Shown: piece after piece, positions 4,265 through 57,312 of the stretch
Layout: every line of letters starts with the position of its first letter
Position numbering within the stretch: the stretch's first letter is position 1
DNA from: Escherichia phage EC121
Sequence record: NC_054909.1
Strand: one strand, 5' to 3'
Length of the DNA: 64,000 nucleotides
Position numbers and translations under genes: made by a program
Notes under the pieces: model-generated
What the model was told of the DNA's origin: nothing
The model's database searches: none
What the model saw: the letters and a program-made list of their open reading frames with translations, nothing else

Positions 4265-4317
4265 CACTTATCCTCGTTTGGTTTCGGGAATATTATACTC
4301 CGGTAATCATAAAGCTA

Positions 4318-4974: not shown

Positions 4975-4976
4975 AA

Positions 4977-5153: not shown

Positions 5154-5155
5154 AA

Positions 5156-5784: not shown

Positions 5785-5823
5785 TACAATTTCCTCATTA
5801 ATTGAACATTGGAGCGATGCGTT

Positions 5824-5945: not shown

Positions 5946-5956
5946 AATTTTAAACT

Positions 5957-6445: not shown

Positions 6446-6489
6446 AGTTATCTCTCACTTGTTAAAAAGATTTTATACTCCACAGGACC

Positions 6490-6519
6490 ATTATACTCTG
6501 GTCCCAAGAGTTTGTAAAC
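6490..6519 (-). promoter_or_regulatory. early promoter (GTTTAC, 18 nt, TATAAT)
   Basis: Minus strand GTTTACAAACTCTTGGGACCAGAGTATAAT between the two paralogs; -10 lies in the loop of a short hairpin. Confidence 0.5.
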
Positions 6520-6521
6520 TA

Positions 6522-7007
6522 TTAATTCAAAATAGCTACCACTGCACTACGAGGTACTACGCTAAAATCACCTGCATGAACAACGTTCAGAAGTTCAACA
6601 CCATCTTCAATCCATTGGTCTGTTACCCAACCACAGACCGAAATAAATGGAGTCTTGATAGCTACTGCACGAGTCAAAAGGTCAGTAGGATCAACTTCTT
6701 TGAAGAGGATAAGCTCTGCTTCAAAGACTATAGTTTTAATTACTTCATCATTATCTAAGCGATGTGCTCGAATCACGTAAGCTTTATTCTTATCATACCA
6801 ATTACTTTTTGAAAAACTTTTAACCACAAACTCGCCTTCACCAAAAACACTAGTCAATGCTTTATAACCCAAATCTAGTTCAGTAGTTTTAATTTCAGTT
6901 TCAACCAGTTTGTAGGTTTTGCCAATTTCGATGGTCCGAGCAGTCATAAAGGTTTCCTTAATTTCTAATGGTTTAACAAGAGTGCCGTACATGCTTGCTA
7001 TATCCAT
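6522..7007 (-). CDS. hypothetical protein, paralog B of a tandem pair
   Basis: 161 aa; shares C-terminal motif with 5957-6445. Confidence 0.55.
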   Translation of the reverse strand: MDIASMYGTLVKPLEIKETFMTARTIEIGKTYKLVETEIKTTELDLGYKALTSVFGEGEFVVKSFSKSNWYDKNKAYVIRAHRLDNDEVIKTIVFEAELILFKEVDPTDLLTRAVAIKTPFISVCGWVTDQWIEDGVELLNVVHAGDFSVVPRSAVVAILN

Positions 7008-7067
7008 ATCAAATATTTTATCTATAGGATTTGGGGGTGTATTCAGGATTATAATTAAATTTCATAA

Positions 7068-7580
7068 TTATCTCATTTCAATAAAATCTACAAGTTCAGC
7101 ATGGGATTTGCGGAACATTACTTGGTGTCCGCCAATGATAACTTCATCTTCAGGAACTTCATAAATCGCAATGTACATTCCACGATCTTTTAAGTCTTCA
7201 CGCTCTTCTCGGGTGAACCATCTCATCATATCATATTCACTAGCGAAAGCAAAATGGTATAATGCAATAAACCGCGATGGAATATACTTTTCAGACGGTG
7301 AATAATTTTTATCCCATTTAGTTTTAATAGCATTATTAGCATTTTCAACTAATAACTTATCATCGTGTGGAATAGGAATACTTTCATGGCTTTCATAATT
7401 ATCGCTATGATGATGAAATGACGATGAATTAATACCACAAAATTTTAGCCAAGTTCGAGTTTTCATAGAATCAAATCCACGATAAGGAGTTGATTGCACG
7501 CATAACTCTTGCCTAATTTTCACTATACCACTATCATCATTTAATGCGCTAAACGATGATTCAACACGATAAATTTTCAT
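7068..7580 (-). CDS. hypothetical protein
   Basis: Track ORF trimmed to ATG at 7580 (MKIYRVESS...) with GAGGATAATAAA RBS; the longer track start falls inside the promoter. Confidence 0.5.
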   Translation of the reverse strand: MKIYRVESSFSALNDDSGIVKIRQELCVQSTPYRGFDSMKTRTWLKFCGINSSSFHHHSDNYESHESIPIPHDDKLLVENANNAIKTKWDKNYSPSEKYIPSRFIALYHFAFASEYDMMRWFTREEREDLKDRGMYIAIYEVPEDEVIIGGHQVMFRKSHAELVDFIEMR

Positions 7581-7605
7581 TTTATTATCCTCAGTAGCTA
7601 TGGTG

Positions 7606-7637
7606 TTATAATACCACAACTAACCGAGGAAGTAAAC
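7606..7637 (-). promoter_or_regulatory. early promoter (GTTTAC ... TATTAT)
   Basis: Minus strand GTTGTTTACTTCCTCGGTTAGTTGTGGTATTATAAC. Confidence 0.45.
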
Positions 7638-7643
7638 AACTTT

Positions 7644-8327
7644 TTATCGTTTTGTTGGAAGAGATAGAGGATCGCACTCTTCCTCTGACGGAGCATCTTC
7701 AAGACCCATAGCATACCGCAAAGCATACTTCATCATCAGGATGTCTTTCGCACAGTCATGAATAGAATCATGCGCAACGAACCCGTCTAAAGTTCCCTTT
7801 GGAAGAGGACATGTGGTCATATCACGAACAAGCAGAAGTGCTTCAATTCTGGTGCGAATATCGCGTTGATTCCAGAATTTACAAGGTTCTAACTTAAACG
7901 TATCAAGCTCATTCTCGGAAACGCCGTTAAGACGTTGAATATCGCGAATGAGATCAACTAAAATTGGAAAATCAAACGACATTCCACGGCACCAGCCCTG
8001 AGATTTCCAAGGATCGATATTATGCGCATTGATGTAATCATTAAATTTTGCAATACCATCGATAGTGCTTACATCTTCATCTGATGGCGCAATATTTTTT
8101 CGAGCTTCAGGAGATTGATTTTTCCACCATTCGATAGTGCTTTTAGTAAAAAGACGATGTCCTTTTTGGCTTTTTAAATCAAATTTGATTTTAATGCCGC
8201 GTGAAACTAATTCATCAAATGTTTCAACTACTTCTGGATTAGGGTCAAAGGCAATAACAGCCAAATCAATAACAGCTGCCTTTTCACCGCTTCCCATTGT
8301 TTCAAAATCTATAATAAAATCAAACAT
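7644..8327 (-). CDS. dexA: exonuclease A (DEDD-type 3-prime to 5-prime exonuclease)
   Basis: 227 aa; N-terminal IIDFETMG (DxE exonuclease motif I); size and position match T4 dexA. Confidence 0.8.
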   Translation of the reverse strand: MFDFIIDFETMGSGEKAAVIDLAVIAFDPNPEVVETFDELVSRGIKIKFDLKSQKGHRLFTKSTIEWWKNQSPEARKNIAPSDEDVSTIDGIAKFNDYINAHNIDPWKSQGWCRGMSFDFPILVDLIRDIQRLNGVSENELDTFKLEPCKFWNQRDIRTRIEALLLVRDMTTCPLPKGTLDGFVAHDSIHDCAKDILMMKYALRYAMGLEDAPSEEECDPLSLPTKR

Positions 8328-8602
8328 TAAATTTTCCTCGCTAAATCGCGAATTTGACCTACAGTATAATCTTGGATATAAACTTTATTAATAGGCTCAT
8401 CAATAAATTTTGCCATAGATTCAATATCTTTTTGTATCTCTTCAAGACTGTATACTATCTTTAAAGCTTTTTCGCGAATAGTAACATTATCAGGTCCTGA
8501 ATTTTCTTGGATGACAGCTTTAACATTTGTCATAAGAGATTTAAACTGCTGCAAACTTAATTCAATCATTAATAACCGCCTTATAAAGATGGCTAATTTC
8601 AC
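8327..8602 (-). CDS. small acidic helical protein (dexA-dda intergenic family)
   Basis: 91-aa ORF (probable start at internal ATG near 8569); same architecture as its two neighbours. Confidence 0.45.
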   Translation of the reverse strand: MKLAIFIRRLLMIELSLQQFKSLMTNVKAVIQENSGPDNVTIREKALKIVYSLEEIQKDIESMAKFIDEPINKVYIQDYTVGQIRDLARKI

Positions 8603-8822
8603 CTAAAACATAATCACTGATTGTAACAGTTTTCACTTCGCCGCAAAAGAATTCTAACGCAATCAAATCTCGTTCAATTTCTTCCAATTGAAGCATTAAC
8701 TTGCCTGATTCAATTTTCACGTTTTTGCGATTTTTACTATAAGCTATTTCATAAATTTCGCTCACTTTATCTTGAAGCAGATAAAACTGGTCTTTAGTTA
8801 TTTCCACGAATAGCTTCCTCAA
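8562..8822 (-). CDS. small acidic helical protein
   Basis: 86-aa ORF in tandem array; overlaps neighbours. Confidence 0.45.
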   Translation of the reverse strand: MRKLFVEITKDQFYLLQDKVSEIYEIAYSKNRKNVKIESGKLMLQLEEIERDLIALEFFCGEVKTVTISDYVLGEISHLYKAVIND

Positions 8823-9054
8823 ATTTAATCAGCAGCTTACAGACACTTTCATCTAATGTAATTACCGTGTCTGTATTACTATGATATGATTGTTTTTCAA
8901 TTCGTTTAATTGCTAGTATAGTATCACTTATAAGATTAAGCTTATAAAGGAGCTCAGCTCCTGTTATCATAACACTGAGGTTATCTTGCTTATCAGTATG
9001 CTTCTTTATACCATCTATTAGACGATTTAAATATTTTGAATTGATGTTAATCAT
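8794..9054 (-). CDS. small hypothetical protein
   Basis: 86-aa ORF directly downstream of dda. Confidence 0.45.
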   Translation of the reverse strand: MININSKYLNRLIDGIKKHTDKQDNLSVMITGAELLYKLNLISDTILAIKRIEKQSYHSNTDTVITLDESVCKLLIKFEEAIRGNN

Positions 9055-9060
9055 ATATCC

Positions 9061-10380
9061 TCACACATAAAACACATCATAACGACCACGAGTGACACCA
9101 ACATAAAGAAGCTGCTGAGCTAGTTCAGCATCTGCATAATGAATACAAGGCGTATAGATGAAAGCACGGTCTACAGACATGCCCTGAGCTTTATGGAATG
9201 TTGATGCAGGAAGTGCTTTCACTTTACTAAACTGTGATTTAGCATCCCAAAAATCACTCCACGGAGCTTTTCCACCTTTATTCCAATTTTTATACGTTTC
9301 TGCCGTTTTACCTAAAAATAAGTTAAACTTATACAGCTCTTCATCAGATGAAATTATTTTAATCTTTTCACGATAATATTCATCATCGCCGTAAGTTTCT
9401 ACTGTTAAATCCCAATAACGAATTAGATATTCTCCAGAAACACCACGAGCTTTAACAAATGTTGATGTATACTCTGCTTCTATAATACGAACTAATTGTC
9501 CGTTATTAAAAATAATTTCTGACACAGGCTTTCCATCAATTTTATATGTTTTAATTAATGGTTCCTGCATTACAATAATTTCACCAACGATAAAATCTTT
9601 ATCAGTTTCAAAAATCTTTTTGCGAATAATGCTATTTAACTTGTCGACAGATTTATTCGTAAATGCCATTACGCGATTTTCAAACAAATCATCTAGCGAT
9701 TTTACGATTGAAAAATAATTTACCATAAAATCGCGTAAAGCGGTATCACCAGTAAATCCACGTACTCCATGCCCGTCAACAACTTTATCATAAATCCACT
9801 TACCGTTGCGAACATCAGTAGCTACATCAATAATAGGAGCATTACTGCGTTTAACTTCAGTGAGTTCACACTGATAAAAATCTTTATGCGTAAAGAATGG
9901 ACTGATATAAGCAGTGTTTTCTCCTGGGTCAACAGGTCTAATTTGCTTATTATCGCCTATTCCAATTATAGTACACCACGGCGGGATAGTTGAAAGCAGA
10001 ATTTTAAATAGCTTTCTATCATACATTGACACTTCGTCGCAGATTAATACTCTGCATTTAGCTAAATCCGGTACTTCTTTTTGTTCAAAAAGAACGTTTT
10101 CTTCATATGTTACCGGGTTAATTTTGAGAATACTGTGAATAGTACTCGCTTCTTTCCCTGACAGTTTAGAAAGAATCTTTTTAGCTGCATGAGTAGGAGC
10201 TGCTAAAATAATGCCAGTTTCGCCCGTAGATATTAAGGCTTCAATGATGAACTTAGTAAGAGTAGTCTTACCAGTACCAGCAGGTCCATTAATAGTTACA
10301 TGATGTTTCTTTTCTTTAATAGCCCTCATAACGATGTTAAAGGCATTTTTCTGGCCTTCGGTCAAATCATCAAATGTCAT
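9061..10380 (-). CDS. dda: Dda DNA helicase (SF1B)
   Basis: 439 aa; Walker A GPAGTGKT; near-identical to recalled T4 Dda over its full length. Confidence 0.97.
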   Translation of the reverse strand: MTFDDLTEGQKNAFNIVMRAIKEKKHHVTINGPAGTGKTTLTKFIIEALISTGETGIILAAPTHAAKKILSKLSGKEASTIHSILKINPVTYEENVLFEQKEVPDLAKCRVLICDEVSMYDRKLFKILLSTIPPWCTIIGIGDNKQIRPVDPGENTAYISPFFTHKDFYQCELTEVKRSNAPIIDVATDVRNGKWIYDKVVDGHGVRGFTGDTALRDFMVNYFSIVKSLDDLFENRVMAFTNKSVDKLNSIIRKKIFETDKDFIVGEIIVMQEPLIKTYKIDGKPVSEIIFNNGQLVRIIEAEYTSTFVKARGVSGEYLIRYWDLTVETYGDDEYYREKIKIISSDEELYKFNLFLGKTAETYKNWNKGGKAPWSDFWDAKSQFSKVKALPASTFHKAQGMSVDRAFIYTPCIHYADAELAQQLLYVGVTRGRYDVFYV

Positions 10381-10688
10381 CGTAAATTCCCTGCAATTGG
10401 TATACTAACAATACGCCCAGTATCTAAAATTCGCCGATATAATCTTTGTGTGTCTACATCAGGCTTAACATGTTTAACTTCTATTTTATTAAACCAAAAC
10501 TTGCGTGGAGTCTCAACTAATCTCGGAATTCCCATACCTAAAGCTAGTCGATACTGATCTTTAAGAGTGGTAAATACTTTATCAGCAATCTCCCTTTCAA
10601 AAAATACAGCAGGGCGGTGTTCATCAAGAGGAACAGGCACTGCAAATCCATCTTTGTCTCTATACACTATCGCATATACATAAAACAT
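10377..10688 (-). CDS. hypothetical protein (dda.1 position)
   Basis: 103-aa ORF overlapping dda start by 4 nt. Confidence 0.55.
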   Translation of the reverse strand: MFYVYAIVYRDKDGFAVPVPLDEHRPAVFFEREIADKVFTTLKDQYRLALGMGIPRLVETPRKFWFNKIEVKHVKPDVDTQRLYRRILDTGRIVSIPIAGNLR

Positions 10689-10689
10689 A

Positions 10690-11436
10690 TTATCCTCGGA
10701 TAAGTTTAAAAATTGAACAATTTAGCGGGTATCCTCTTTTCAGTTTAAGTTTATCAATAAAAGACAAGTTTTGATACCGCTCTACACCTTGAATAATTTT
10801 ATCACACATATCATATTGCATTTCTGCTTCTGACAACTTTTTCACAGTTTTCCAATCAGAGCCTTTAAGAAGAACGTTCAATTTAACAACTTCAGCGCCT
10901 TCTGCTATACGAGAACCATCAATACGAGCTTTGAGTGCTACAATCGTTAGCTTAATGTCAGAGGTTTGTTTTGATTTAGAAAGCTGAGAAATGTGTTCAA
11001 TTCGGTTTTCACGTTTTTTCTGTATAGCTTTAATTTGATTATAAGTCTTTTTGATTTTAGCCCATTTCTTTTCATCTAAATTTAGTTTATGAACTTTTTT
11101 CGCAGATGAACGACCAATTCGCAAAGCAAATAAATCACGCTTTTCAATCAACTCTTCTAAAGTATAATCAGAACGAAATGTATTATACTTTTTCTTTACT
11201 GCAATAACATTCCCTTTAATGTATCCAACGTTATTATCAAAACGTTCTAATGATAATTTCTCTCCTTCAATACGATTATCAAAAGGTTCTCCTGAGTAAG
11301 CGCAAACTTTCTGGTCTAAAATGTTCTTAATGTAATTGAAGTCTAAGTTAAAATCTTTAGAACGTCTTTTTGCAGATGCCTGAGTATGCTCTAAACGACG
11401 TTTAATTTTACGAATTTGATTATTAGACAGTTTCAT
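10690..11436 (-). CDS. srd: Srd-like protein (basic, about 29 kDa)
   Basis: 248-aa basic ORF at the position of T4 srd between dda and modA; assignment by position and size only. Confidence 0.45.
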   Translation of the reverse strand: MKLSNNQIRKIKRRLEHTQASAKRRSKDFNLDFNYIKNILDQKVCAYSGEPFDNRIEGEKLSLERFDNNVGYIKGNVIAVKKKYNTFRSDYTLEELIEKRDLFALRIGRSSAKKVHKLNLDEKKWAKIKKTYNQIKAIQKKRENRIEHISQLSKSKQTSDIKLTIVALKARIDGSRIAEGAEVVKLNVLLKGSDWKTVKKLSEAEMQYDMCDKIIQGVERYQNLSFIDKLKLKRGYPLNCSIFKLIRG

Positions 11437-11479
11437 ATTTTTCTCACATCTTACGGACGATTGACTACTATACTATAAC

Positions 11480-11510
11480 ATTTTTACCTTGGCTTGTAAA
11501 CAACTTTATG
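11480..11510 (-). promoter_or_regulatory. early promoter (GTTTAC, 17 nt, TATAGT)
   Basis: Minus strand GTTGTTTACAAGCCAAGGTAAAAATGTTATAGT upstream of the srd-like gene. Confidence 0.45.
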
Positions 11511-11558
11511 CAAAAATGCTTTAAAACTTTCGTGGTATAATGAATCTAAGTCCTTCCA

Positions 11559-12161
11559 TTATAGATTAAATCCTTCAAAATCAAGAGTATAGATAGTGTA
11601 TGTTGAATACTTTTTATACTCATATCTATCTGCAATTCTAAATACACTTCCAGCTGGTATCATTACTTCCTGTTCATCTGAAACTAATTCCATATTACGA
11701 TAACGATGGCTATCTGGAAACTTAAAACTCGGACTATATTCTTTACAACGTAGAGCTTTTATAGCATACTCCTGGAAATTAAACACCATAGGAGCTTTGA
11801 ATTCAAAAATAACTTGTGTGTTGTATTCTAATCCAGAAGCAAAGTGTAGAGCTATATTTTTATCATATGAAGCTGATACTACTTTATCAAATGTAATAAT
11901 ATCAATTCCTTGATTTAACACCTGTTTAGTCTCAACTGGAACACCTCTCCAAAGAGGTTTATCGTTTGGAACCAAACGAGATTTGATTATTTCATTTAAC
12001 CAAGAATGATCGTCTGGCTTATTAGTAATACAATGAATTAAAAGTTCAATTTCGGATAAATTAAATCCTTCAGAAAGTAATTCTTCACGAATAGAAGCAC
12101 GCACCGATGCATCCATTGATTTGATTTTAAAATCTTTTAATTGCATTGCTGAATATTTCAT
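11559..12161 (-). CDS. modA: ADP-ribosyltransferase ModA
   Basis: 200 aa; R-S-E triad context (WRGV..., SAS, EQEVMIP); size matches T4 ModA. Confidence 0.75.
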   Translation of the reverse strand: MKYSAMQLKDFKIKSMDASVRASIREELLSEGFNLSEIELLIHCITNKPDDHSWLNEIIKSRLVPNDKPLWRGVPVETKQVLNQGIDIITFDKVVSASYDKNIALHFASGLEYNTQVIFEFKAPMVFNFQEYAIKALRCKEYSPSFKFPDSHRYRNMELVSDEQEVMIPAGSVFRIADRYEYKKYSTYTIYTLDFEGFNL

Positions 12162-12781
12162 TCAACTACCTCAACATCATACACTTTAAATGTTCCAAAT
12201 GAATCGTGTAATTTTTCTTTTGAAATAGAAGTTATTTTATACTTTCCAATTGGAATCATCCATTCTTGTTCACGTACAATCATCATTAAGTTATCAGTAC
12301 GTTCTGAATCTAATCCATCAGTATCTTCATATGTATACTTAAACTCAGTATTAGGAGAAGAAAGTATAATATCGCTGATATGGTCAGAATAATTAAAAGC
12401 TTTATCAGTTTTTAAGCGAAATATTATTTCAGTGGAATATTCAACATAAGAAAAAGAACACGCTGTGTGCAAACTAGTAGTAAATGAATCTACTCTGCTC
12501 GTTGAAAACACTTCTCCGACTTGTAAATCTTTAATGAGTTCTTTTGTCGATTTTGATATACCACGATATAGCTGATAAGGCGATTTAGTTAAATGCTTTT
12601 TAACGATTTTATTCAACTGCTGATGAAGAGCTTCATTCTTTTTGGCTTCCATACATTGCCAAAGAATTGACTGTTCAAAGTCAGTAAATTTTTCACAGAC
12701 CTTTTTATACATATCATATTGAAAATCGACACTTTCAGCTTTTATAGATAACTGTTCAACATCTGCAAGATTAATAATCAT
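12158..12781 (-). CDS. modB: ADP-ribosyltransferase ModB
   Basis: 207 aa; paralog of ModA with YRGIS, STS, EQEWMIP motifs; 4-nt overlap with modA. Confidence 0.75.
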   Translation of the reverse strand: MIINLADVEQLSIKAESVDFQYDMYKKVCEKFTDFEQSILWQCMEAKKNEALHQQLNKIVKKHLTKSPYQLYRGISKSTKELIKDLQVGEVFSTSRVDSFTTSLHTACSFSYVEYSTEIIFRLKTDKAFNYSDHISDIILSSPNTEFKYTYEDTDGLDSERTDNLMMIVREQEWMIPIGKYKITSISKEKLHDSFGTFKVYDVEVVE

Positions 12782-12805
12782 GATAGCCTCCGTATACTTC
12801 AGAAG

Positions 12806-12838
12806 CTATCATATCATTGTTAGGAAGGAAAGTAAACA
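12806..12838 (-). promoter_or_regulatory. early promoter (GTTTAC ... ATATGAT)
   Basis: Minus strand GTTGTTTACTTTCCTTCCTAACAATGATATGAT upstream of modB. Confidence 0.45.
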
Positions 12839-12849
12839 ACTTTTTTGAA

Positions 12850-13032
12850 TTATTTTGCCCAGGGAGCCCAGGGCGGAGGGTCAAGATGGTATGAAGCTAG
12901 TTCTTCTAGAAGAGCATCTGGGGCTTCAATTCCATAATTCTGTAATACTATACGGTACTCTTTCTTATAATCACTAGAATCATTCTGGATATTCGTAGAA
13001 TGATTATCTTCTAACATCTCAAATAAATCCAT
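12850..13032 (-). CDS. small hypothetical protein with Pro/Trp-rich C-terminus
   Basis: 60-aa ORF; C-terminus LDPPPWAPWAK is encoded by an unusually GC-rich stretch. Confidence 0.4.
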   Translation of the reverse strand: MDLFEMLEDNHSTNIQNDSSDYKKEYRIVLQNYGIEAPDALLEELASYHLDPPPWAPWAK

Positions 13033-13040
13033 ATTAATTC

Positions 13041-13511
13041 CTAGCGATAAAAACCAAAATGACGATTAGCTTCAATAATCTTTCTTTCTTCTTCGGACAT
13101 TCTCCAGCGTAGTCCAACATCAAAATGAGCCCAGACCATCTTAACAAATGCATTTATATCTTTAATATCTTCAATAATGAATGTTTTACTTTTATAAGGT
13201 TGACTAGCTAATTTAACTTTATCGTCTTCAAACAGGTCAAAAAGACCATATTCATGAGCTCTTTTATAGCCTTTAATAGTTAAAGCTTCAGAAGAAGAAA
13301 ACGGTGAATCAGTATTCCGTAAAATATCTTCAGTATGCTTTATAATTAGAATAACATTTTCTGGATATTTTCTTTCTTTTATATCTTTAATTAAAAGATC
13401 CGGATTTTCTGCTAAAGGAATAATTAATGAACACTTTTTATCAAGTGTATTTACTGATTTACCTTCTTTAGACATAAATTCTATTGAATAACGTTTTGCT
13501 ACTTCAATCAT
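13041..13511 (-). CDS. hypothetical protein
   Basis: 156-aa ORF, no recognised domain. Confidence 0.5.
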
Positions 13512-13668
13512 GTGATTTCCTTTTGCCTACTAATGGACCGTCAGGAATTTTGTTTTCCTGAATGTATTTCTCATTTTCTTCCATCATTTTACTGCCAATT
13601 TTAAGAAGCAAATCCATTGCTTCATTTGCTTTAGCTTTAGCCTCTTCTAACGTCATATCTTTGTTCAT
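13504..13668 (-). CDS. small hypothetical protein
   Basis: 54-aa ORF not in the track; GGGGA RBS; ATGA overlaps with both neighbours. Confidence 0.4.
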
Positions 13669-13868
13669 GATTTATCCCCATAGATGTCTCTCATCAATTT
13701 AAGCGCTGAGCGTTCTAATTTCTTTTCTTTCTCAGCACTAATCATTGATTTCATCCATTCTTCTGATTCGTTCTGCATTTCTTTATTTACTTGTTCAACC
13801 CAACCATCATCAATATACATTGAGTTTGGTCTATTGAACCATTCAAGCATCTTCTTCAGAACTTTCAT
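13665..13868 (-). CDS. small hypothetical protein
   Basis: 67-aa ORF, ATGA-coupled to the downstream ORF. Confidence 0.45.
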
Positions 13869-14340
13869 TTGTTTTACCTAAAACAATAGTAGGAGCATCG
13901 TCAAATTTATGAATTTTTAGTAAATTTGGATTTAAATTATTCCATAAAGAGGTAATAAAATATGATAGCGCATTTTCTTCTGTAATTATAAATTTATTTC
14001 CCTTATCTATTTTCCAGTCATATATTGAATCATATGAATATAATGGCAATGGTTTATTGTTATAATATGATTCAGCAACATCAATATAGTTAGATTTAGT
14101 AAATGCTTGAATTGACATAAATGGAGAATTTCGTACAGTTTCAATAATTCCGATCTTTTTAAGTTTTATTTCAACATCTTCTGGAACTGGCATTGAAATA
14201 AAATCTTCTACTAGATACATGTTATTATCATATCTTTTATCAATCATTACTGCTACGGTAATTGGAACGTCTTTAGCAAACGACAAACTATTACTGCTAA
14301 TATACATTTCAAACAAAATCGCTTCCATAATTTTCCTCAA
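13843..14340 (-). CDS. hypothetical protein (mrh-region)
   Basis: 165-aa ORF; no recognised domain. Confidence 0.5.
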
Positions 14341-50671: not shown

Positions 50672-51050
50672 AGAATATGATTGAACAGACTACATAAGCA
50701 CCACACACAGATTGAACTAATACCATTCCAAAGAACCAGACAATATTATCAAACCATGTCTGTTTTACGTCGAAAGGACGTAAACTTACAGTAATATTAT
50801 CACCTTTTTCTATTGAAGAATACATCTCTGGGGAAATATATTCACTAAATCTATAACCGTCTTTGAGTTCATATACAGCAATAAACGATAAACTAGACCC
50901 CTTTCCTTGAGTTCCTGTAAGGGTATTAACTACAGTAACATCATAATCTTTATAATGCATATAATCATTAATAGCATAATAACCATATGCAATTGCTATA
51001 CATAAACAACATATCAATAAATTCAATCTTTTAATTATCAACTGTTTCAT
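50643..51050 (-). CDS. membrane protein
   Basis: 135 aa; hydrophobic segments at both termini. Confidence 0.5.
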   Translation of the reverse strand: MKQLIIKRLNLLICCLCIAIAYGYYAINDYMHYKDYDVTVVNTLTGTQGKGSSLSFIAVYELKDGYRFSEYISPEMYSSIEKGDNITVSLRPFDVKQTWFDNIVWFFGMVLVQSVCGAYVVCSIIFCVFSKIENE

Positions 51051-51105
51051 AATAATCTCAATTAAAAGGGCTTAGAACCATTATACCATCCTTGGTATAA
51101 AGCGG

Positions 51106-51633
51106 TTATGCGAGTACCGTCTTTAACCGTTCTTCAAACTTCCGAAGAGTATTTTGGCGTTCAGCTCTTTGCTTTTTGTAAGTTTCAATACGCTCTGAAA
51201 TGAGAGTGTATCGTTCATTTACTGATTCTTTCATAAAATCAGGAATTTCACGAGAAGCTTTAATCTCGTCAAATTTATCAATAACAGCTTGCTCTTCAGC
51301 AATTAAGTTATCATACATTAAAATATCTTTCTTGATGAACTCAATATCTTCTTGAGTTACACGAGATAATTTAGATGCTTTATCCTTTTTGTACTGTTCG
51401 TTAGTATCACGAGACCAGTGTAATGTACGATTTTTATTCGTATTTTTGTAAATTTCTACAATACCGATCTCATCAATAATAACGATCCAATTCCAACGCG
51501 ATTTGTAAATTTGTCCTCCATCAACAGTGATTTCACCTCCGATTGAGATGTCATTAAAGAACTTGCTTTGTGCTTCTGATTTAAATTTACCATCGTTGTA
51601 ATTTACCAGGTTGAAAATATCTTTAGCGTTCAT
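51106..51633 (-). CDS. hypothetical protein
   Basis: 175-aa ORF, charged C-terminal helix. Confidence 0.5.
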   Translation of the reverse strand: MNAKDIFNLVNYNDGKFKSEAQSKFFNDISIGGEITVDGGQIYKSRWNWIVIIDEIGIVEIYKNTNKNRTLHWSRDTNEQYKKDKASKLSRVTQEDIEFIKKDILMYDNLIAEEQAVIDKFDEIKASREIPDFMKESVNERYTLISERIETYKKQRAERQNTLRKFEERLKTVLA

Positions 51634-51693
51634 TTTGTGTTCCTCCGTAGTTGATAGGGTAATAATACCACAGAGGAACAGTCTTGTAAACCA

Positions 51694-52008
51694 CTAAAAG
51701 AAACTTCTTTCACAATTTTTTCCACTGAACCATGCGCTCACTGCTTTCTTAGTCTCAGGAGCAGTGTTATCCATAAACCATTCAAAGGCAGCCTTTTTAT
51801 GATTCTGGAGGGCTTCTCGGGCTTTAATCTGCTCACGGTCTATTAACACTAACATATGAGCCTTTCTTGTCACCATGGGCTTCTTATGATTTTTTGAATA
51901 CTCCCAATCATTTGTCCATCGCATTGTTGTTGCGAACTGAAATACTGCTTCTTTAATTTTAGTTTCGTAAATTTCACGAGCCTTTGAGTATAACATCACT
52001 ACCTCCAT
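51694..52008 (-). CDS. hypothetical protein
   Basis: 104-aa ORF. Confidence 0.45.
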   Translation of the reverse strand: MEVVMLYSKAREIYETKIKEAVFQFATTMRWTNDWEYSKNHKKPMVTRKAHMLVLIDREQIKAREALQNHKKAAFEWFMDNTAPETKKAVSAWFSGKNCERSFF

Positions 52009-52097
52009 TCACCAGTTTAATTCTAGTCATCTTTTTAATGGCAGTCCATATAATCTATTTCTGAACTGCCTTTTTGTCATAGAAGTCCTCTTATGAA

Positions 52098-52841
52098 TTA
52101 TTTCAGAAGAGTAACCTCAGCGATTTCTTCCCAACCGTTTTTGTCGGTCATAATAAAGTCAGCAAGATAAAGAGCAGTACGCAGTGAAACATTGCGTAAA
52201 CGATTAACATTGACTTTCATCCATGATAATGCTTTATAAGTTTCTTCATCAGAAAGACCGCGCTTTTGCATCATGTCAGTTGAAAGAATAACATCTTCAA
52301 CCCTGACCATAATTTCTTCATTAGTGTGAACACCCAAATCCAAATAAACTGAGCGGGACACTAATGCTTGTAAATGTGGAGCAAGTTTAGTACCACGGTC
52401 TAATTCGCGGTCAATATCAACGTTTGTGATAAAAACAATAGTTCCTTTAAATTCAAACTCGCGCTCAATGCCTTTTTCTTCTAAGTAAGAAGATGCAGTG
52501 CTCCAGCAGACTTTACGGGTCTCTCCAGTGTCCAGAGCAGCTTTTAGAAGATTAAGAATGTCCATATCAGAGAAAACATCCACATCATCAATCAAAAGGA
52601 CAGAATTCTCTTCACGATTATTCCAAAGCTGTTCATAAAGACCAATACCAGAGATTTTACCATTAATGCTTTTATACTCAATGTATCCAATATCATTTGC
52701 TTTATTTAAAGCTTTATCTAAAGAATACGTTTTACCAATACCTGCTGCTCCCGAGATAATTAATGAACGAATGTTTCCGTTAATAATACCATTCGTCATC
52801 ATTCCCATAACATTAAATCTTTTATTAATGCGGGTTTTCAT
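52098..52841 (-). CDS. P-loop NTPase (AAA-like ATPase), 5-prime end unresolved
   Basis: 247 aa; Walker A SGAAGIGKT and Walker B VLLIDDVD; the frame stays open for about 68 codons upstream with no start codon. Confidence 0.6.
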   Translation of the reverse strand: MKTRINKRFNVMGMMTNGIINGNIRSLIISGAAGIGKTYSLDKALNKANDIGYIEYKSINGKISGIGLYEQLWNNREENSVLLIDDVDVFSDMDILNLLKAALDTGETRKVCWSTASSYLEEKGIEREFEFKGTIVFITNVDIDRELDRGTKLAPHLQALVSRSVYLDLGVHTNEEIMVRVEDVILSTDMMQKRGLSDEETYKALSWMKVNVNRLRNVSLRTALYLADFIMTDKNGWEEIAEVTLLK

Positions 52842-52996
52842 ATCTTCATACGATTCTTTAACTTCTTCAACTTTTACACCATCATATGAAATGTCTGATT
52901 TGTAAACCCAAACACCGCGACGCTTACCGTCAATTTCAACAAAAACTTTACCATCTCCTTGTGCATCTACCGGAGCATTATCTGGGAACCATTCGC

Positions 52997-53068
52997 CTAA
53001 GAGTTCAAAAGTTCCAGAGATTTCTTTACCGAAGTAGATACCCTCTTATTGATAGTTACAGTTTTCAT
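52997..53068 (-). other. 23-codon leader ORF behind cassette copy C
   Basis: ATG with GGAGAA RBS encodes MKTVTINKRVSTSVKKSLELLNS; it overlaps, in another frame, the open upstream extension of the ATPase ORF. Confidence 0.35.
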
Positions 53069-53150
53069 TTTATTCTCCAAATCTATATCAGTTGATAGTT
53101 GTATAGTACCATAAAGCTTTATGCTTGTAAACAGTTTTGTGAAAAATTTT
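53069..53150 (-). repeat. promoter-leader cassette copy C
   Basis: TTTTTCACAAAACTGTTTAC, 17 nt, GGTACTATACAACTATCAACTGATATAGATTTGGAGAATAAAATG. Confidence 0.6.
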
Positions 53151-53162
53151 TGAAATAAAAAA

Positions 53163-53180
53163 GGGAGCCCGAAGGCTCCC
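53163..53180 (-). terminator. intrinsic terminator after the NTase-fold gene
   Basis: GGGAGCC-UUCG-GGCUCCC followed by UUUUUU on the minus-strand RNA. Confidence 0.6.
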
Positions 53181-53182
53181 TA

Positions 53183-54196
53183 TCATTTATAATAACTTCT
53201 GTGGTTTTCAAGATAGACCTTCTCAAGGAAGTCATCCCAGAAACTCATGTCTACTGTTTTAGGCATACCGTTCTTAGAAGCTTCAGTAGATGCTGCTTCT
53301 ACTTGATCGACCACATCTTCTAAAAACTCTTGAACCGTTTTAAATGGATGCTTACCCAACTTCACGTCGAGAATAAATGGAGCGTCTTGAAGTGGATAAA
53401 TCAAGTCGCCAGTTTTGTAAATTTCCAATAGTTGGAGTCCACCACGACAAGCATGACTTAGTGCTTTCCAATCAATACCTTCATTAGCTTCGGCTTTACG
53501 AGCACGTTCACCATATTCAGCATCTAATTTGTTCAGTGACTGCTTAAGCTCAATAAGAGAAAGCGTTGTCTGATATTTACGACCCAGCACTGTATAGAAC
53601 GTTTGTGGACCTGTTTTCTCATGATTATGGAACACCCATTCACAGAATTCGTTCTCTGGAAGACGATGCTTAATATCTTCAATTTTAGTGCGACGTTGTC
53701 CTTGTGTTCCATCTTCTCGGTAAACATTCCGTTGATCAGGAATTTGATTAACTACTTTCAATACATCACGTAATGCAGCCAAACGAGAACCTTTAACACC
53801 ATATTTAGAGGCTTGTTTACGAACATATCCTAAATAGGATTTCATGTTAGTCGTATAAAAACGAGAACGGTTGTCTTGAATAAACTTCCACACATCAGGC
53901 AAATCAGATTTAACCACTAGTTCAGGTGGAGTGTGAAGCATATCCAATGCTACAGTTTCACCATCTGCTGCTAATTTAAAGAAATATTTAAGACTGTATA
54001 GTTCATGGTCAATATCATCTTTAGTGTTTTTAGATGATGTGTTGTTAGTGTTTTTACTCATGTGCTCTTTGACATTTCCGATAAGAATATCGCGAGCAGG
54101 AGGAACAAAGATTTCTTTAAAATCTACATCAGATTCTGGGGTAGAAGTTCCATAAAGATGACTACCGAAATAGCTTTTCATTACTGTTTTCATCAT
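53183..54196 (-). CDS. nucleotidyltransferase-fold protein (pol beta / minimal NTase superfamily)
   Basis: 337 aa; N-terminal FGSHLYGTSTPESDVDF matches the GS-x(9-13)-DxD NTase signature; rest of protein unassigned. Confidence 0.55.
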   Translation of the reverse strand: MMKTVMKSYFGSHLYGTSTPESDVDFKEIFVPPARDILIGNVKEHMSKNTNNTSSKNTKDDIDHELYSLKYFFKLAADGETVALDMLHTPPELVVKSDLPDVWKFIQDNRSRFYTTNMKSYLGYVRKQASKYGVKGSRLAALRDVLKVVNQIPDQRNVYREDGTQGQRRTKIEDIKHRLPENEFCEWVFHNHEKTGPQTFYTVLGRKYQTTLSLIELKQSLNKLDAEYGERARKAEANEGIDWKALSHACRGGLQLLEIYKTGDLIYPLQDAPFILDVKLGKHPFKTVQEFLEDVVDQVEAASTEASKNGMPKTVDMSFWDDFLEKVYLENHRSYYK

Positions 54197-54654
54197 TCAG
54201 CCTTATATTCAATAACAGGACATACTTTAGCTTTACGAGCTTTTAAAAATTCAACGATAATCGATTTCTTGGGTTGAATAAGAGGTAAACCTTTATTTTT
54301 CCTATCAATGTTTTCTACGTGTAAAGCATAATCCTTTTTCCATTTATAATCTTTATATTTTTCACGCAAATGTACAGGAATAACAAATGAACCAATAATA
54401 AGTAAAACAACCAAAAGCGCAAGTATAAATGCTGATGGAAGCAAAGTCCATAAACTACCAAAAATAAGCCAGCGCTGTAAACTTTCTGCACAAATAATTG
54501 TCAGCCCTACGAGTATAGCACACCCAAAAATAGAAACGAAAAATGTAGGGATAACAATAGACCAAAAGTATGCACATAGCGTCTTAGGTCGTTGCCATTC
54601 GTCGTTAAACAATTTGAATAATTTATAATGCCAAGAGTTTTCATTAATAATCAT
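54193..54654 (-). CDS. membrane protein
   Basis: 153 aa; two to three predicted TM helices; basic C-terminus. Confidence 0.5.
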   Translation of the reverse strand: MIINENSWHYKLFKLFNDEWQRPKTLCAYFWSIVIPTFFVSIFGCAILVGLTIICAESLQRWLIFGSLWTLLPSAFILALLVVLLIIGSFVIPVHLREKYKDYKWKKDYALHVENIDRKNKGLPLIQPKKSIIVEFLKARKAKVCPVIEYKAE

Positions 54655-54656
54655 AA

Positions 54657-55178
54657 TTATCCTTTCATTGGAGGCGTAACGGTTGTTAAATACTTAATCA
54701 TAGCTTCAGCTTCTGATTTTGATAATGAAATTTCTTCATTGTTTTGACGAATAGAAATAAAATCCGGATGACGGTCACCACCAGCTTTTAAAACACACAT
54801 ATAAGTATCAACTTCGCCTTCAATATTTGAAATGATTGAAGCAGTTCCACATGAATGCGGTTTTTGATAAATCAATACAGCTTTTCTTCCACCGTTTGAC
54901 TGTTCATAGGCTTTTAATACATCAAGCAAATCAGTTCTTTTATCAATAGCTAAAATATTATTTTCATCTTCAATGTTAAATCCTTCGGATACTTCATAAA
55001 GCGTTACCCATAAATCACCGATGTCAATAACAGCATTTACTTTTCCACGGCTTTCAAGAGTATGACAAATTTTCTTGATTTCGTCATAACTCATTTTAAT
55101 AATATCATCTCCTTGACTAAGAAAGATGTCATTTTTAAATTCAACACGAATTAAACCGCTTCCACTTGAAATAAACAT
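54657..55178 (-). CDS. hypothetical protein, tandem paralog 1
   Basis: 173 aa; C-terminus ...EAEAMIKYLTTVTPPMKG resembles that of the next ORF. Confidence 0.5.
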   Translation of the reverse strand: MFISSGSGLIRVEFKNDIFLSQGDDIIKMSYDEIKKICHTLESRGKVNAVIDIGDLWVTLYEVSEGFNIEDENNILAIDKRTDLLDVLKAYEQSNGGRKAVLIYQKPHSCGTASIISNIEGEVDTYMCVLKAGGDRHPDFISIRQNNEEISLSKSEAEAMIKYLTTVTPPMKG

Positions 55179-55184
55179 ATTTCC

Positions 55185-55739
55185 TCACTTTGAAATCATA
55201 GTTGGAATGACAGAATCAAGATAAGTCTTTAGTGCAATAGCTTCATCTTTGGTAAATGTGACAATATGTGCTCGAGAATCATCAATTTGGCGAACAAGTA
55301 CGACATCGCCATCTTCATAAGAAGTCTTGACATCCAAAGTCGTAGTATAATTTGCAGCTACTGGATTAATAATGCTAGCACCGCGATCTTTAGCCCATTG
55401 AAGTTTAGCCTTTTCGGGTGTTTCGATTGTTTCAGATTCCAAGAATTCTTTCACCTTGGTAACGAATGTTGCCCAATTGTTGATAGAAAGACACATAAAT
55501 TCAGTTTCAATATTACCGCCGTAAAGGCCACGATAAAAACGAACTTGGAGGTCGCCTGTAATATTAGTTACACCGGTAACTCCTGAGGGAGCATAAGATA
55601 AAATCGCAGCCAGTTCCATAGGAAGAATAGTAATATTATCGTCTTCCTGCGTCAGAACGTATACATTATCACGTTTTTCGATAACCAGGTCACCGAACAA
55701 ATCAGTTGTTTCAATTACAGCTTTCATATTATTTACCAA
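55185..55739 (-). CDS. hypothetical protein, tandem paralog 2
   Basis: 184 aa; C-terminus ...DEAIALKTYLDSVIPTMISK. Confidence 0.5.
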   Translation of the reverse strand: MVNNMKAVIETTDLFGDLVIEKRDNVYVLTQEDDNITILPMELAAILSYAPSGVTGVTNITGDLQVRFYRGLYGGNIETEFMCLSINNWATFVTKVKEFLESETIETPEKAKLQWAKDRGASIINPVAANYTTTLDVKTSYEDGDVVLVRQIDDSRAHIVTFTKDEAIALKTYLDSVIPTMISK

Positions 55740-55914
55740 TTAAAGTTTCAATATAAGAATCAAGATTTACTTTAGCTTCTTCCATAAGAGTTTTGTATTT
55801 AATCTTGTTAGCATGTCCGGAGAAAGCTGATTCATCAATAATTGTTGATGTATGAACAGCTCTACTATACGTCTCAATTAATTCTCTTAATTTAAAAGCC
55901 TGCTCACTTGTCAT
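55729..55914 (-). CDS. small acidic helical protein (array member)
   Basis: 61 aa; shares N-terminal (S/T)xEQxxKL..LI and C-terminal DxYIE pattern with neighbours. Confidence 0.45.
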   Translation of the reverse strand: MTSEQAFKLRELIETYSRAVHTSTIIDESAFSGHANKIKYKTLMEEAKVNLDSYIETLIGK

Positions 55915-56078
55915 TACATACTCCTTTGAATAATATCAATAATGTTGTTCACCAAATTATACGTAAACATTGGGTAATTATATTGAATCATCACATACAC
56001 AACAAACAAAACTTTCATTCTCTTCTCCTTGGCAGTTGACAAGATTACTATACCATAACCTTGCCAACTTGTAAACCA

Positions 56079-56252
56079 TTAAATGACGTTTTCGATAAAA
56101 TTCTGAAGCTTTGTATGAGCATCAACCATGATTTTCATTTCTTCCTTTGCGAAAGCTGTGCCTCTTTCACGAGAAGAACATTCATAGTCAGAAACTGCAT
56201 TAGCATATTCTTCAATTAGCTTCATTAAAAACATCTGCTTTTCAGTTTTCAT
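56079..56252 (-). CDS. small acidic helical protein (array member)
   Basis: 57-aa ORF not in the track: MKTEKQMFLMKLIEEYANAV... Confidence 0.4.
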   Translation of the reverse strand: MKTEKQMFLMKLIEEYANAVSDYECSSRERGTAFAKEEMKIMVDAHTKLQNFIENVI

Positions 56253-56436
56253 TATTCCACCTAATCATTTCAAGATATTGAACTAACTTAGCTTTGGATT
56301 TATCCAAATCCTTTTTAGCTGTTTCTATACCGTCGTATGAATATCCTTCACAATGCTCAACTGCTAATTGATATGAATCTATTTCAACATCACGTGCTAA
56401 TTTAATGATTTTTTCAAACTGTTCGTGTGTTAGCAT
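56242..56436 (-). CDS. small acidic helical protein (array member)
   Basis: 64-aa ORF. Confidence 0.45.
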   Translation of the reverse strand: MLTHEQFEKIIKLARDVEIDSYQLAVEHCEGYSYDGIETAKKDLDKSKAKLVQYLEMIRWNNEN

Positions 56437-56438
56437 AC

Positions 56439-56642
56439 TTAAACTCTCGTATTATGATCGATAATTTCATCAAGAAACATATCTAACGCTTCTAAAGCAT
56501 TATCAACTTTAGTTTCAAAGTCTTTAATGCCTTTATTCGAAATACCCGATGAATACCAAGCAAAGTCAATCAGCTCTTCATCTGCTTTACGAATTGAAGC
56601 CACTAATTCCTTGATTTTATCTGCTTGCTCTATACTAATCAT
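56439..56642 (-). CDS. small acidic helical protein (array member)
   Basis: 67 aa from internal ATG ([14 protein letters not shown]...). Confidence 0.45.
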   Translation of the reverse strand: MISIEQADKIKELVASIRKADEELIDFAWYSSGISNKGIKDFETKVDNALEALDMFLDEIIDHNTRV

Positions 56643-56830
56643 TATTCCACCACATATGACAGAGAGAATATTGCACACGCCATGTGAGTTGCAACTTCAT
56701 CACACATATTATAACGTTTCTTAAGAAGTTCTACCAGTTCTTCACTAGTAACTTCATCCATGTCGACGAAAAAATCACCATTAATGATGACGTAGATATT
56801 TCCTTCTTGATTGAGTGCTTCAATTTTCAT
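56642..56830 (-). CDS. small hypothetical protein
   Basis: 62 aa from ATG at 56830 with GAGGAG RBS; the longer track start lies inside the promoter. Confidence 0.5.
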
Positions 56831-56851
56831 GATGTTCTCCTCTTTATCCGA

Positions 56852-56888
56852 TAGTTGTATAGTATCACAGCTCAAACGGAAAGTAAAC
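56852..56888 (-). promoter_or_regulatory. early promoter (GTTTAC, 17 nt, TACTAT) with cassette-type leader
   Basis: GTTTACTTTCCGTTTGAGCTGTGATACTATACAACTATC... immediately after a terminator hairpin. Confidence 0.55.
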
Positions 56889-56903
56889 CGGTAAAATGAA
56901 AAA

Positions 56904-56921
56904 AGTCTCCCGAAGGAGACT
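56904..56921 (-). terminator. intrinsic terminator
   Basis: GUCUCC-UUCG-GGAGAC followed by UUUUUU on the minus-strand RNA. Confidence 0.6.
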
Positions 56922-56925
56922 AATG

Positions 56926-57312
56926 TTATTCGAGGGAAAGAAGATACTTACTCTGGTAAAACATCCCAGTAATATCATCTATCGTGCTTTGAATGGCTGG
57001 AGGCATTTCTTTATAAATGCTGTTAGATTGGTCTAGTATGCGATCAATCATTTTAATTGTGTCGGTAGGAAGTTTACTGGCATCTGGAATTGAAGGTGTG
57101 TATTTTCTACCAGAATACCCCAAATATTGCTCACCAAATTTATCAATCAAATCTGGCAATTCGGAGAAAATAAAATCGTATGCTTTGTGTCTAGCATAAC
57201 TTTTAGTTTCAAAATGTGCAGAATGAAAATAAGCTTGTGCAGCCATTAATAAACCTAAGTATTCATCTGCCTTTGAAGGTTTTCCACTTTGTGAAAAGTC
57301 GCTGAATTTCAT
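56926..57312 (-). CDS. hypothetical protein upstream-adjacent to rI (rI.-1 position)
   Basis: 128-aa ORF overlapping the rI stop by 4 nt. Confidence 0.55.

Follow-up and report, generated by a model that had tools for sequence, protein, structure and literature searches.

The gene nrdC.11 of Escherichia phage EC121 encodes a nucleotidyltransferase (NTase) of the RlaP family (PF10127) with conserved catalytic residues. On balance, and by a modest degree, we favour the reading that this protein is an RNA 3'-end enzyme, which likely aids tRNA repair by the phage polynucleotide kinase/3'-phosphatase (Pnk) and RNA ligase 1 (Rnl1), and that the genes around it act independently of it. The gene lies in a 64,000-nucleotide (nt) stretch of the sequence record NC_054909.1, which we refer to as the window. 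A previous description of the window, made from its letters and open reading frames (ORFs) and here called the sequence-only reading, had singled out five ORFs between positions 52098 and 55739, coding for an NTase, a Walker A/B ATPase, a membrane protein and two tandem paralogs, and had considered them as a possible nucleotide-signalling or anti-defence module. All five ORFs were recovered with the same coordinates on the minus strand. The region corresponds to the nrdC.10 – nrdC.11 – (mobD-site cassette) – mobD.1 segment of a Tequatrovirus (T4-like phage), so that the locus is a rediscovery of the annotated and published T4 genes nrdC.10 and nrdC.11 and is already known. The statement that no function can be assigned to these genes does not hold: orthologs of nrdC.11 were matched to the nucleotidyltransferase domain COG3541 and those of nrdC.10 to an AAA motif as early as 2006 (Nolan et al., 2006, PMC1524935), nrdC.11 is labelled as a nucleotidyltransferase in the RefSeq entry of T4, and T4 NrdC.11 was explicitly placed in the RlaP family, in cluster 5 of a sequence similarity network, in 2025 (Carruthers, Fatma and Huang, bioRxiv 2025, PMC12776372). 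A literature search on nrdC.10, nrdC.11, mobD.1, PF10127 and COG3541 did not return a functional study of the phage genes. The gene on which our argument centres is the following:

53183..54196, minus strand: nrdC.11, 337-amino acid (aa) RlaP-family (PF10127) Pol-beta-type nucleotidyltransferase, assigned by Pfam, the T4 ortholog and hhalign; predicted layout of an N-terminal NTase domain and a C-terminal helical domain on either side of an approximately 80-aa insert (at about residues 146-228)

NrdC.11 matches the RlaP family above the gathering threshold of Pfam (43.9 bits with a cut-off of 23, E=3.1e-11), with the match limited to residues 7-135, and it also matches phrog_388, annotated as 'nucleotidyltransferase'. 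The NTase signature, FGSHLYGTSTPESDVDF, is found at residues 10-26. A homolog search over 1.84 billion cluster representatives returned 3,516 proteins at E<=1e-3, 835 of which reached E<=1e-30, and the family alignment used here comprises 55 diverse homologs with 34-54% identity, all but one of which match PF10127 (54/55, best E=2.2e-19). Residues G11, S12, G16, S22, D23, D25, N57, D63, Y132, R231, K244, H248, R251 and P268 are invariant in this alignment; they include G11, S12, D23, D25 and D63, which make up the Pol-beta signature (hG[GS], [DE]x[DE] and a third carboxylate). The GS...DVD motif on which the sequence-only reading had based its assignment is therefore genuine and not a chance motif, given the Pfam score and the invariance of the carboxylates, and the 337-aa protein is indeed a nucleotidyltransferase of the Pol-beta superfamily. 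For comparison, a profile was built from twelve Bacillales RlaP proteins obtained in a genome scan, in which the residues equivalent to the NTase signature of NrdC.11 are likewise invariant. When the NrdC.11 profile was aligned with this full-length Bacillus RlaP profile using hhalign, the match had a probability of 99.9 (E=2.7e-32, 233 aligned columns) and spanned NrdC.11 residues 4-316 and Bacillus RlaP residues 17-250, with a single large gap at the approximately 80-aa insert, which is also the most variable stretch of the NrdC.11 family alignment. As both the NTase and the C-terminal domain align with full-length Bacillus RlaPs, the approximately 230 aa that had been described as unassigned can be assigned and represent the RlaP C-terminal helical domain together with a lineage-specific insert, which lies between the two domains.

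The T4 ortholog of the window protein, NrdC.11 (NP_049709.1; 'nucleotidyltransferase' in RefSeq), is 95% identical over 336 aa, differs by 17 amino acid substitutions and is encoded at the same place, between nrdC.10 and the mobD site and with the same terminator and promoter downstream. We take NP_049709.1 to be the protein listed in Swiss-Prot as 'uncharacterized 38.9 kDa protein in nrdC-mobD intergenic region'. Between the window and phage NiC89, nrdC.11 shows 30 nucleotide differences and just one amino acid change, and 15 amino acid changes separate the protein from that of phage G4507; the gene is under purifying selection and widely conserved. Full-length proteins of the NrdC.11 type (29-34% identity, 319-361 aa) were also seen on contigs from metagenome-assembled genomes binned as Caldisericales, Saccharibacteria and Sulfurimonas. 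One of the scanned bacterial RlaPs, from Bacillus tequilensis (NZ_VMNZ01000011.1, stretch L012, 5609-11998), is covered end to end by PF10127; its gene (7953-8717) lies between a gene for an SNF2-type helicase and genes for HTH_36 and IstB-like ATPase proteins, surroundings that look like a prophage or mobile-element replication block and not like an RNA-ligase operon.

The profile searches also speak to the other nucleotidyltransferase classes that the sequence-only reading had suggested for comparison. None of the five proteins matched a PADLOC defence model, CBASS cyclases included, at E<=0.01, and none matched an NCBIfam model. SMODS or related Pfam families were not matched by any of the 55 NrdC.11 homologs, and the window protein itself matched neither NTP_transf_2 (PF01909) nor the KNTase C-terminal domain, with no KNTase or MNT family at threshold; the NTP_transf_2 matches seen in three of the 55 homologs are weak (best E=0.0017) and far below the strength of the RlaP match. 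An assignment to the CD-NTases was ruled out by these profiles, and assignments as an MNT/KNTase or as a CCA-adding enzyme were dismissed on profile evidence. The nucleotide-signalling reading thus finds no counterpart in the searches, in which PADLOC was negative and Pfam returned RlaP alone; of the classes compared, only PF10127 was matched.

What an RlaP enzyme can do is known from the proteins of Pseudomonas fluorescens and Pseudomonas aeruginosa, which were characterised in the 2025 preprint; the family itself was named by Burroughs and Aravind (as cited in PMC12776372). These enzymes add one or two nucleoside monophosphates to the 3'-OH of RNA, leave DNA and protein untouched and favour Mn2+ (PMC12776372). 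In vitro, they label rRNA- and tRNA-sized species as well as single-stranded RNAs with little specificity for the nucleoside triphosphate (NTP), do not label E. coli proteins, and, when offered a mimic of a cleaved tRNA, act on its 5' half in preference to free strands (PMC12776372). They also raise the aminoacylation of a repaired tRNA that had lost one nucleotide, and RlaP was proposed to be an antidote to 'smart' ribotoxins such as RloC (PMC12776372). By homology with the Pseudomonas RlaPs, residues D23, D25 and D63 of NrdC.11 would most likely hold two metal ions, and the enzyme would most likely add one or two nucleotides from NTPs to an RNA 3'-OH in a template-free manner. The likeliest substrate would be the 5' half of a tRNA that has been cut and trimmed by a host anticodon nuclease. 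In this scheme, Pnk would first generate the 3'-OH, NrdC.11 would then, after Pnk and before Rnl1, restore the lost nucleotide or nucleotides, and Rnl1 would finally reseal the tRNA. The RNA substrate, the cooperation with Pnk and Rnl1 and a role in counter-defence are inferred from the homologs and from the gene distribution. An anti-defence role, as had been suggested for this gene cluster, is plausible in the form of a repair of RNA cut by host ribotoxins; in the form of nucleotide signalling it is not supported.

The distribution among T4-like phages was assessed by counting, per host genus, the records with gp23, Rnl1, Pnk, NrdC.11 and NrdC.10, given here in this order:

Escherichia: 635 / 635 / 634 / 607 / 556
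Klebsiella: 320 / 287 / 286 / 286 / 149
Shigella: 89 / 83 / 83 / 83 / 76
Aeromonas: 86 / 77 / 77 / 75 / 48
Acinetobacter: 71 / 69 / 70 / 69 / 72
Enterobacter: 58 / 56 / 56 / 56 / 36
Vibrio: 135 / 54 / 124 / 55 / 121

The NrdC.11 counts track those of Rnl1, whereas the NrdC.10 counts do not. In jumbo phages, the distribution of RlaP has likewise been reported to mirror that of RNA ligases (Iyer et al., 2021, PMC7824862). A scan of the whole genome of Vibrio phage D533 found none of NrdC.11, Rnl1, Rnl2 and Pnk. We regard the genus distribution as supportive, not decisive, evidence for a link to RNA repair. As the distribution of NrdC.11 follows Rnl1 and not the neighbouring gene for an AAA+ protein, we tentatively go one step further and suggest that NrdC.11 might be the missing third enzyme of the T4 Pnk and Rnl1 tRNA repair pathway, a phage-specific RlaP subtype with an approximately 80-aa insert that would restore nucleotides removed by RloC-type nucleases, although we would sooner bet against this specific proposal than on it.

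Gene adjacency, the kind of association with RNA-ligase or other RNA-repair genes from which the RlaP family takes its name, adds little to this link. We searched with profiles the flanks of nrdC.11 in 80 IMG/VR loci with NrdC.11 relatives (39-96% identity) and in several GenBank phages. On a metagenomic viral contig referred to as L095 (IMGVR_UViG_3300033142_000627), genes for an Rnl1-type ligase (2544-3647), an NrdC.11-type RlaP (9989-11002) and an Rnl2-type ligase (13108-13992) lie within 11.5 kb (2544-13992), which is the nearest thing to an RNA-repair neighbourhood that we found for the NrdC.11 subfamily. On contig L101 a Pnk gene is located 1.3 kb from the NrdC.11 ortholog, and on contig L088 an Rnl1 gene 3.2 kb away.

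Several observations weigh against the view that NrdC.11 is an RNA 3'-end enzyme working with Pnk and Rnl1. Of 86 loci, no more than five (L095, L101, L088, L086 and L087) had a gene for Rnl1, Rnl2 or Pnk at a distance of up to 10 kb from nrdC.11, which is about what chance would give for a genome of approximately 170 kb with three such genes, and we therefore rejected adjacency as evidence for linkage; in T4-like genomes, nrdC.11 is not located beside pseT or rnlA. The genus counts are marginal totals that do not test the association genome by genome and that are confounded by common ancestry. The enzymatic activity of RlaPs is known from the P. fluorescens and P. aeruginosa enzymes only, and the preprint itself terms the in vivo role a proposal (PMC12776372). 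These characterised RlaPs belong to cluster 1a and have no counterpart of the approximately 80-aa insert, whereas NrdC.11 is a member of the separate, phage-dominated cluster 5, and nrdC.11 lies outside any RtcB/RtcA or RNA-ligase operon. Structural data do not help either: the AlphaFold2 model of NrdC.11, made from a shallow alignment of 29 close homologs (77-96% identity), had a predicted local distance difference test score (pLDDT) of 57, and below 50 in the NTase domain, and was unusable for a fold search, and a search of the PDB with the single sequence and with the 55-sequence profile gave nothing meaningful, the crystal structure of the P. fluorescens enzyme PfRlaP being either absent from the copy searched or too distant. 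Lastly, the nrdC.11-mobD.3 segment can be deleted in T4 and the phage remains viable (PMC9825161).

Two other roles of NrdC.11 have to be weighed at this point. The protein could be an RNA 3'-end nucleotidyltransferase that acts outside anticodon-loop repair, for instance on nibbled 3'-CCA ends of tRNAs, in the maturation of phage tRNAs, or in the tailing of mRNAs or decay intermediates, which would alter their stability. Family membership and RlaP biochemistry fit such a role equally well, and the labelling of rRNA- and tRNA-sized and of single-stranded RNAs with little NTP specificity (PMC12776372) speaks for it, as does the distance of nrdC.11 from pseT and rnlA; however, the preference of RlaP for the 5' half of a cleaved-tRNA mimic and a genus distribution that tracks Rnl1, and not phage tRNA content or core genes, both point away from it without being decisive, and we consider it rather unlikely. 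A good deal less probable still is that NrdC.11 nucleotidylates an acceptor other than RNA, be it a protein, as when a host factor is AMPylated or an MNT-like antitoxin modifies its HEPN toxin, or else a small molecule, in the manner of the aminoglycoside nucleotidyltransferases. The Pol-beta fold has such roles in other families, the stray NTP_transf_2 matches could be read in this way and the insert could alter acceptor specificity, but neither DNA nor E. coli proteins were labelled by the RlaPs characterised so far, matches at threshold to a KNTase or MNT family were absent, and NrdC.11 retains the C-terminal domain in which the RNA cleft is formed, including the invariant residues R231, K244, H248 and R251.

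The remaining part of the sequence-only reading concerns the genes next to nrdC.11. The window has a G+C content of approximately 34%, almost every gene is located on the minus strand, and the immediate upstream neighbours of the region are the genes for thymidine kinase, rI.1, rI and rI.-1. In a megablast search, the 3.8-kb region matched 741 phage records, and the top matches were Tequatrovirus genomes with 96-97% DNA identity. Gene names were taken from the maps of T4, T6, G4507, NiC89 and bov9_1, and the gene order matches that of T4, T6 and G4507. In the direction of transcription, it starts with two small ORFs, the first of which has the position of T4 mobD.2, followed by the MobD.1 ortholog, a second MobD.1-like gene, the membrane protein gene, nrdC.11 and nrdC.10. 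The region is part of a variable block that consists of early genes which are not essential. The possibility, raised earlier, that these are ubiquitous core genes with a known role is borne out by half: nearly all T4-like phages of enterobacteria carry the genes, yet they are accessory, and the segment that contains nrdC.11 is deletable as described above. The features around nrdC.11 are:

52098..53068, minus strand: nrdC.10, coding for an AAA+ ATPase that begins with a small beta domain; reading frame interrupted by a 2-bp AG insertion at 53043-53044
53103..53131, minus strand: promoter-like site of the sigma-70/T4-early type, with TG and the pattern TTTACA-17-TACTAT, ahead of nrdC.10 (consensus match only)
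53162..53181, minus strand: intrinsic-terminator-like hairpin with an 8-bp stem, 6 G-C pairs, then TTTTT, directly 3' of the nrdC.11 stop codon
54193..54654, minus strand: 153-aa predicted membrane protein (phrog_944, E=3e-50) with two long hydrophobic segments
54657..55178, minus strand: 173-aa T4_y05I (MobD.1) family protein, phrog_1502 (T4_y05I_N E=2e-33, T4_y05I_C E=7e-22)
55185..55739, minus strand: MobD.1 ortholog (T4_y05I family), 48% identical to T4 MobD.1 (E=3e-58)
55729..56075, minus strand: head of a probable transcription unit, with a promoter-like site TTTACA-17-TATAGT (56075-56047) and two small ORFs
55729-55914, minus strand: 61-aa ORF, phrog_4859; gene order as in G4507 and T6
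55914-56042, minus strand: 42-aa ORF, located where T4 has mobD.2; gene order as in G4507 and T6

The counterpart of the ATPase is T4 NrdC.10 (NP_049708.1; phrog_1250), from which the window copy is set apart by a private 2-bp insertion. In T4, T6, G4507, NiC89 and bov9_1, NrdC.10 has 322-325 aa and starts at an ATG equivalent to window position 53068. The AG insertion at 53043-53044 falls after codon 8 and splits the first eight codons from the rest of the gene, and it was carried by none of 500 phage records matching the 91-nt stretch that was searched. Over the 314 codons past the frameshift, the gene differs from those of G4507, NiC89 and bov9_1 at 12-15 nucleotide positions and at no amino acid position; as these differences are only synonymous, purifying selection continues to act on the nrdC.10 frame, and the insertion must either have arisen very recently or stem from an error in sequencing or assembly. 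This private frameshift in an otherwise extremely conserved gene is the sole oddity specific to the window. An ATPase start at position 52841 was rejected, since 42 homologs share the 75 codons upstream of it, for which a beta domain is modelled with confidence. The Walker A/B motifs reported for the ORF at 52098-52841 (247 aa) are thus real, but the ORF is the C-terminal part of the frameshifted nrdC.10, and, with the start at 53068, the 340-bp 'gap' between the ATPase and the NTase is mostly coding.

Membership of NrdC.10 in the AAA+ family is borne out by Walker A (GAAGIGKT) and Walker B (LLIDDVD) motifs, by sensor 1, arginine finger and sensor 2 positions, for which we take the conserved FITN, SRS and SLRTA motifs, respectively, and by an alpha/beta core with a helical lid. 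The AlphaFold2 model is confident (pLDDT 90) and shows a small N-terminal beta domain, which is missing from some NrdC.10 homologs of jumbo phages, followed by the canonical AAA+ core and lid. A Foldseek search with this model returned generic AAA+ proteins (dynein, ORC/Cdc6, NSF, RFC and Hda), and MoxR-class AAA+ proteins (NorQ and CbbQ) were the nearest structural neighbours by such a small margin that we commit ourselves only to the term AAA+ ATPase. In a tblastn search with the G4507 protein, 481 records were at least 99% identical, and this unusually high conservation among Tequatroviruses, next to an NrdC.11 and a membrane protein that do gather amino acid changes, points to strong constraint. 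In Vibrio phage D533 (OZ195763.1, 19742-20755), an NrdC.10 homolog is encoded inside a replication block, in the order clamp, clamp loader, regA-like protein, dUTPase, NrdC.10 and helicase, a context that hints at a role of NrdC.10 related to DNA metabolism. Still more speculatively, NrdC.10 may have a role in nature that matters and is unrelated to that of NrdC.11.

The membrane protein, whose hydrophobic segments span approximately residues 25-60 and 62-98, was correctly recognised as such in the sequence-only reading. It differs from that of G4507 by eight amino acid changes, and the stop codon of its gene overlaps the nrdC.11 start (ATGA). The description of the two genes upstream as tandem paralogs also stands: the 173- and 184-aa proteins are 29% identical to each other (E=1e-8), and both contain the two Pfam domains of T4 MobD.1, T4_y05I_N and T4_y05I_C ('y05I-like putative transcription factor'; PF24449 and PF24448), with 115.3/78.1 bits for the 173-aa and 111.5/62.8 bits for the 184-aa protein, above the cut-offs of 24.9 and 27. 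The 184-aa ORF reaches up to a TTG at 55739; as relatives annotate a 543-nt gene, the ATG at 55727 is most likely the start codon, giving a protein of 180 aa. T4 has a single copy of MobD.1, whereas the window phage has two in tandem, and the 173-aa protein has no counterpart at the same position in T4. The mobD site is polymorphic: T4 carries here the HNH homing endonuclease gene mobD (12430-13209 of the T4 stretch L002; PMC2988022), and the window phage, T6, G4507 and NiC89 carry the membrane protein gene and the extra y05I/MobD.1 paralog.

The sequence-only reading had further assumed that each unit of the cluster is bounded by its own hairpin-promoter module, but we find a single clear module of this kind, between nrdC.11 and nrdC.10. 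The hairpin at 53162-53181 is invariant in T4, T6 and G4507, and a terminator (-18.4) is annotated at the same place in G4507; the promoter-like sequence at 53103-53131 is conserved in the same three phages. It has the extended -35 region GTTTACAAG in common with the promoter-like site at 56047-56075, and this extended -35 region is typical of T4 early promoters. The two paralog genes, the membrane gene and nrdC.11 abut or overlap, and intergenic signals are absent between them. Because of this tight spacing and the lack of terminators, the two small ORFs, the paralogs, the membrane gene and nrdC.11 look like one transcription unit, which would extend from the promoter-like site at 56075-56047 to the terminator at 53162-53181. 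Only a weak hairpin follows nrdC.10 (52037-52073). In a scan of 6.5 kb, promoter-like sites were not in excess over shuffled sequence (31 compared with 25.8 ± 5.1) and terminator-like sites modestly so (6 compared with 2.6 ± 1.4). An Rfam scan of positions 51000-57000 gave two sub-threshold matches at or adjoining the terminator hairpin (L20_leader, 28 bits with a gathering score of 58.7), which we took as chance.

Whether these genes form a functional combination can be judged from how they are inherited. In about half of the 80 IMG/VR loci, NrdC.10 is encoded downstream of nrdC.11 on the same strand at a distance of 7-2272 bp, and these loci belong essentially to Tequatrovirus-like and Acinetobacter lineages; in about half, no NrdC.10 was found within 10 kb of NrdC.11. 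NrdC.10 was also not found in the 5-kb flanks of nrdC.11 in KVP40 and Aeromonas phage AS-gz, and, conversely, NrdC.11 was not found over the whole 157-kb genome of Vibrio phage D533, which has NrdC.10. In the jumbo phage UE-S1, the AAA+ part occurs alone, and a nucleotidyltransferase annotation is absent from the 12.7 kb around it. A homolog of the membrane protein was present within 4 kb of nrdC.11, mostly just upstream, in 42 of 86 loci, and y05I proteins near nrdC.11 in 18-23 of 86. The presence/absence mapping across T4-like phages that had been proposed earlier thus yields different distributions for NrdC.11 and NrdC.10. As NrdC.11 and NrdC.10 each occur alone and T4 has mobD in place of the membrane protein gene and one paralog, the cluster is an inherited gene order in a plastic region and not an obligate partnership, and the supposed functional combination of NTase, ATPase and membrane protein is not supported.

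The idea that the NTase, the AAA+ ATPase, the membrane protein and the paralogs constitute one nucleotide-signalling or anti-defence module related to CBASS, Thoeris or Pycsar, with, for instance, an NTase that synthesises or degrades a signalling nucleotide and with the ATPase and the membrane protein as effectors or partners, is largely refuted by these distribution data, and we regard it as scarcely credible. It draws on the adjacency of the genes on one strand, on the translational coupling of the membrane and NTase genes through their ATGA overlap, and on the upstream membrane protein homolog in 42 of 86 and the downstream NrdC.10 in about 40 of 80 loci; against this stand the lack of any PADLOC match in the region, CD-NTases included, an NTase that fits RlaP and not SMODS or another cyclase family, the absence of the membrane protein and one paralog from T4, the occurrence of NrdC.11 without NrdC.10 and the reverse, a separate promoter for nrdC.10 behind a terminator, and the position of the D533 homolog of NrdC.10 in a replication module. 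A narrower version, in which only NrdC.10 and NrdC.11 are a functional pair, with an AAA+ protein, structurally closest to MoxR-type remodelers, that loads, activates or recycles either the NTase itself or the RNA or ribosome on which it acts, and with the other three proteins as bystanders, fares slightly better but is still improbable. The fact that every Tequatrovirus relative, and also the Acinetobacter T4-likes, have nrdC.10 directly downstream and in the same orientation (gaps of 7-2272 bp) and the strong purifying selection on both genes, with the 12-15 synonymous and no non-synonymous differences in nrdC.10, would agree with it. However, the NrdC.11 and NrdC.10 records differ in Klebsiella (286/149), Vibrio (55/121) and Aeromonas (75/48), NrdC.10 occurs alone in D533 and not within 5 kb of the KVP40 nrdC.11, nrdC.11 and nrdC.10 have a terminator and a promoter between them, and in the window nrdC.10 is frameshifted whereas nrdC.11 is intact. 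The four neighbours of nrdC.11, which code for NrdC.10, the membrane protein and two y05I/MobD.1 paralogs, are accessory genes in their own right and do not supply subunits of an NTase-based system; what they share with nrdC.11 is a location by descent and, for the genes upstream of it, a probable transcript.

Taken together, NrdC.11 is a member of the RlaP family, and the ATPase, the membrane protein and the paralogs should not be counted as parts of its system. The hypothesis that NrdC.11 restores tRNA ends has already been published, and the present data add some support from gene distribution. If NrdC.11 indeed is the third enzyme next to Pnk and Rnl1, the phage would be able to defeat abortive-infection ribotoxins whose damage is beyond repair by ligation alone. 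Should NrdC.11 extend trimmed tRNA ends, a third step would have to be added to the textbook Pnk/Rnl1 pathway, and a viral countermeasure against RloC-type nucleases would be known.

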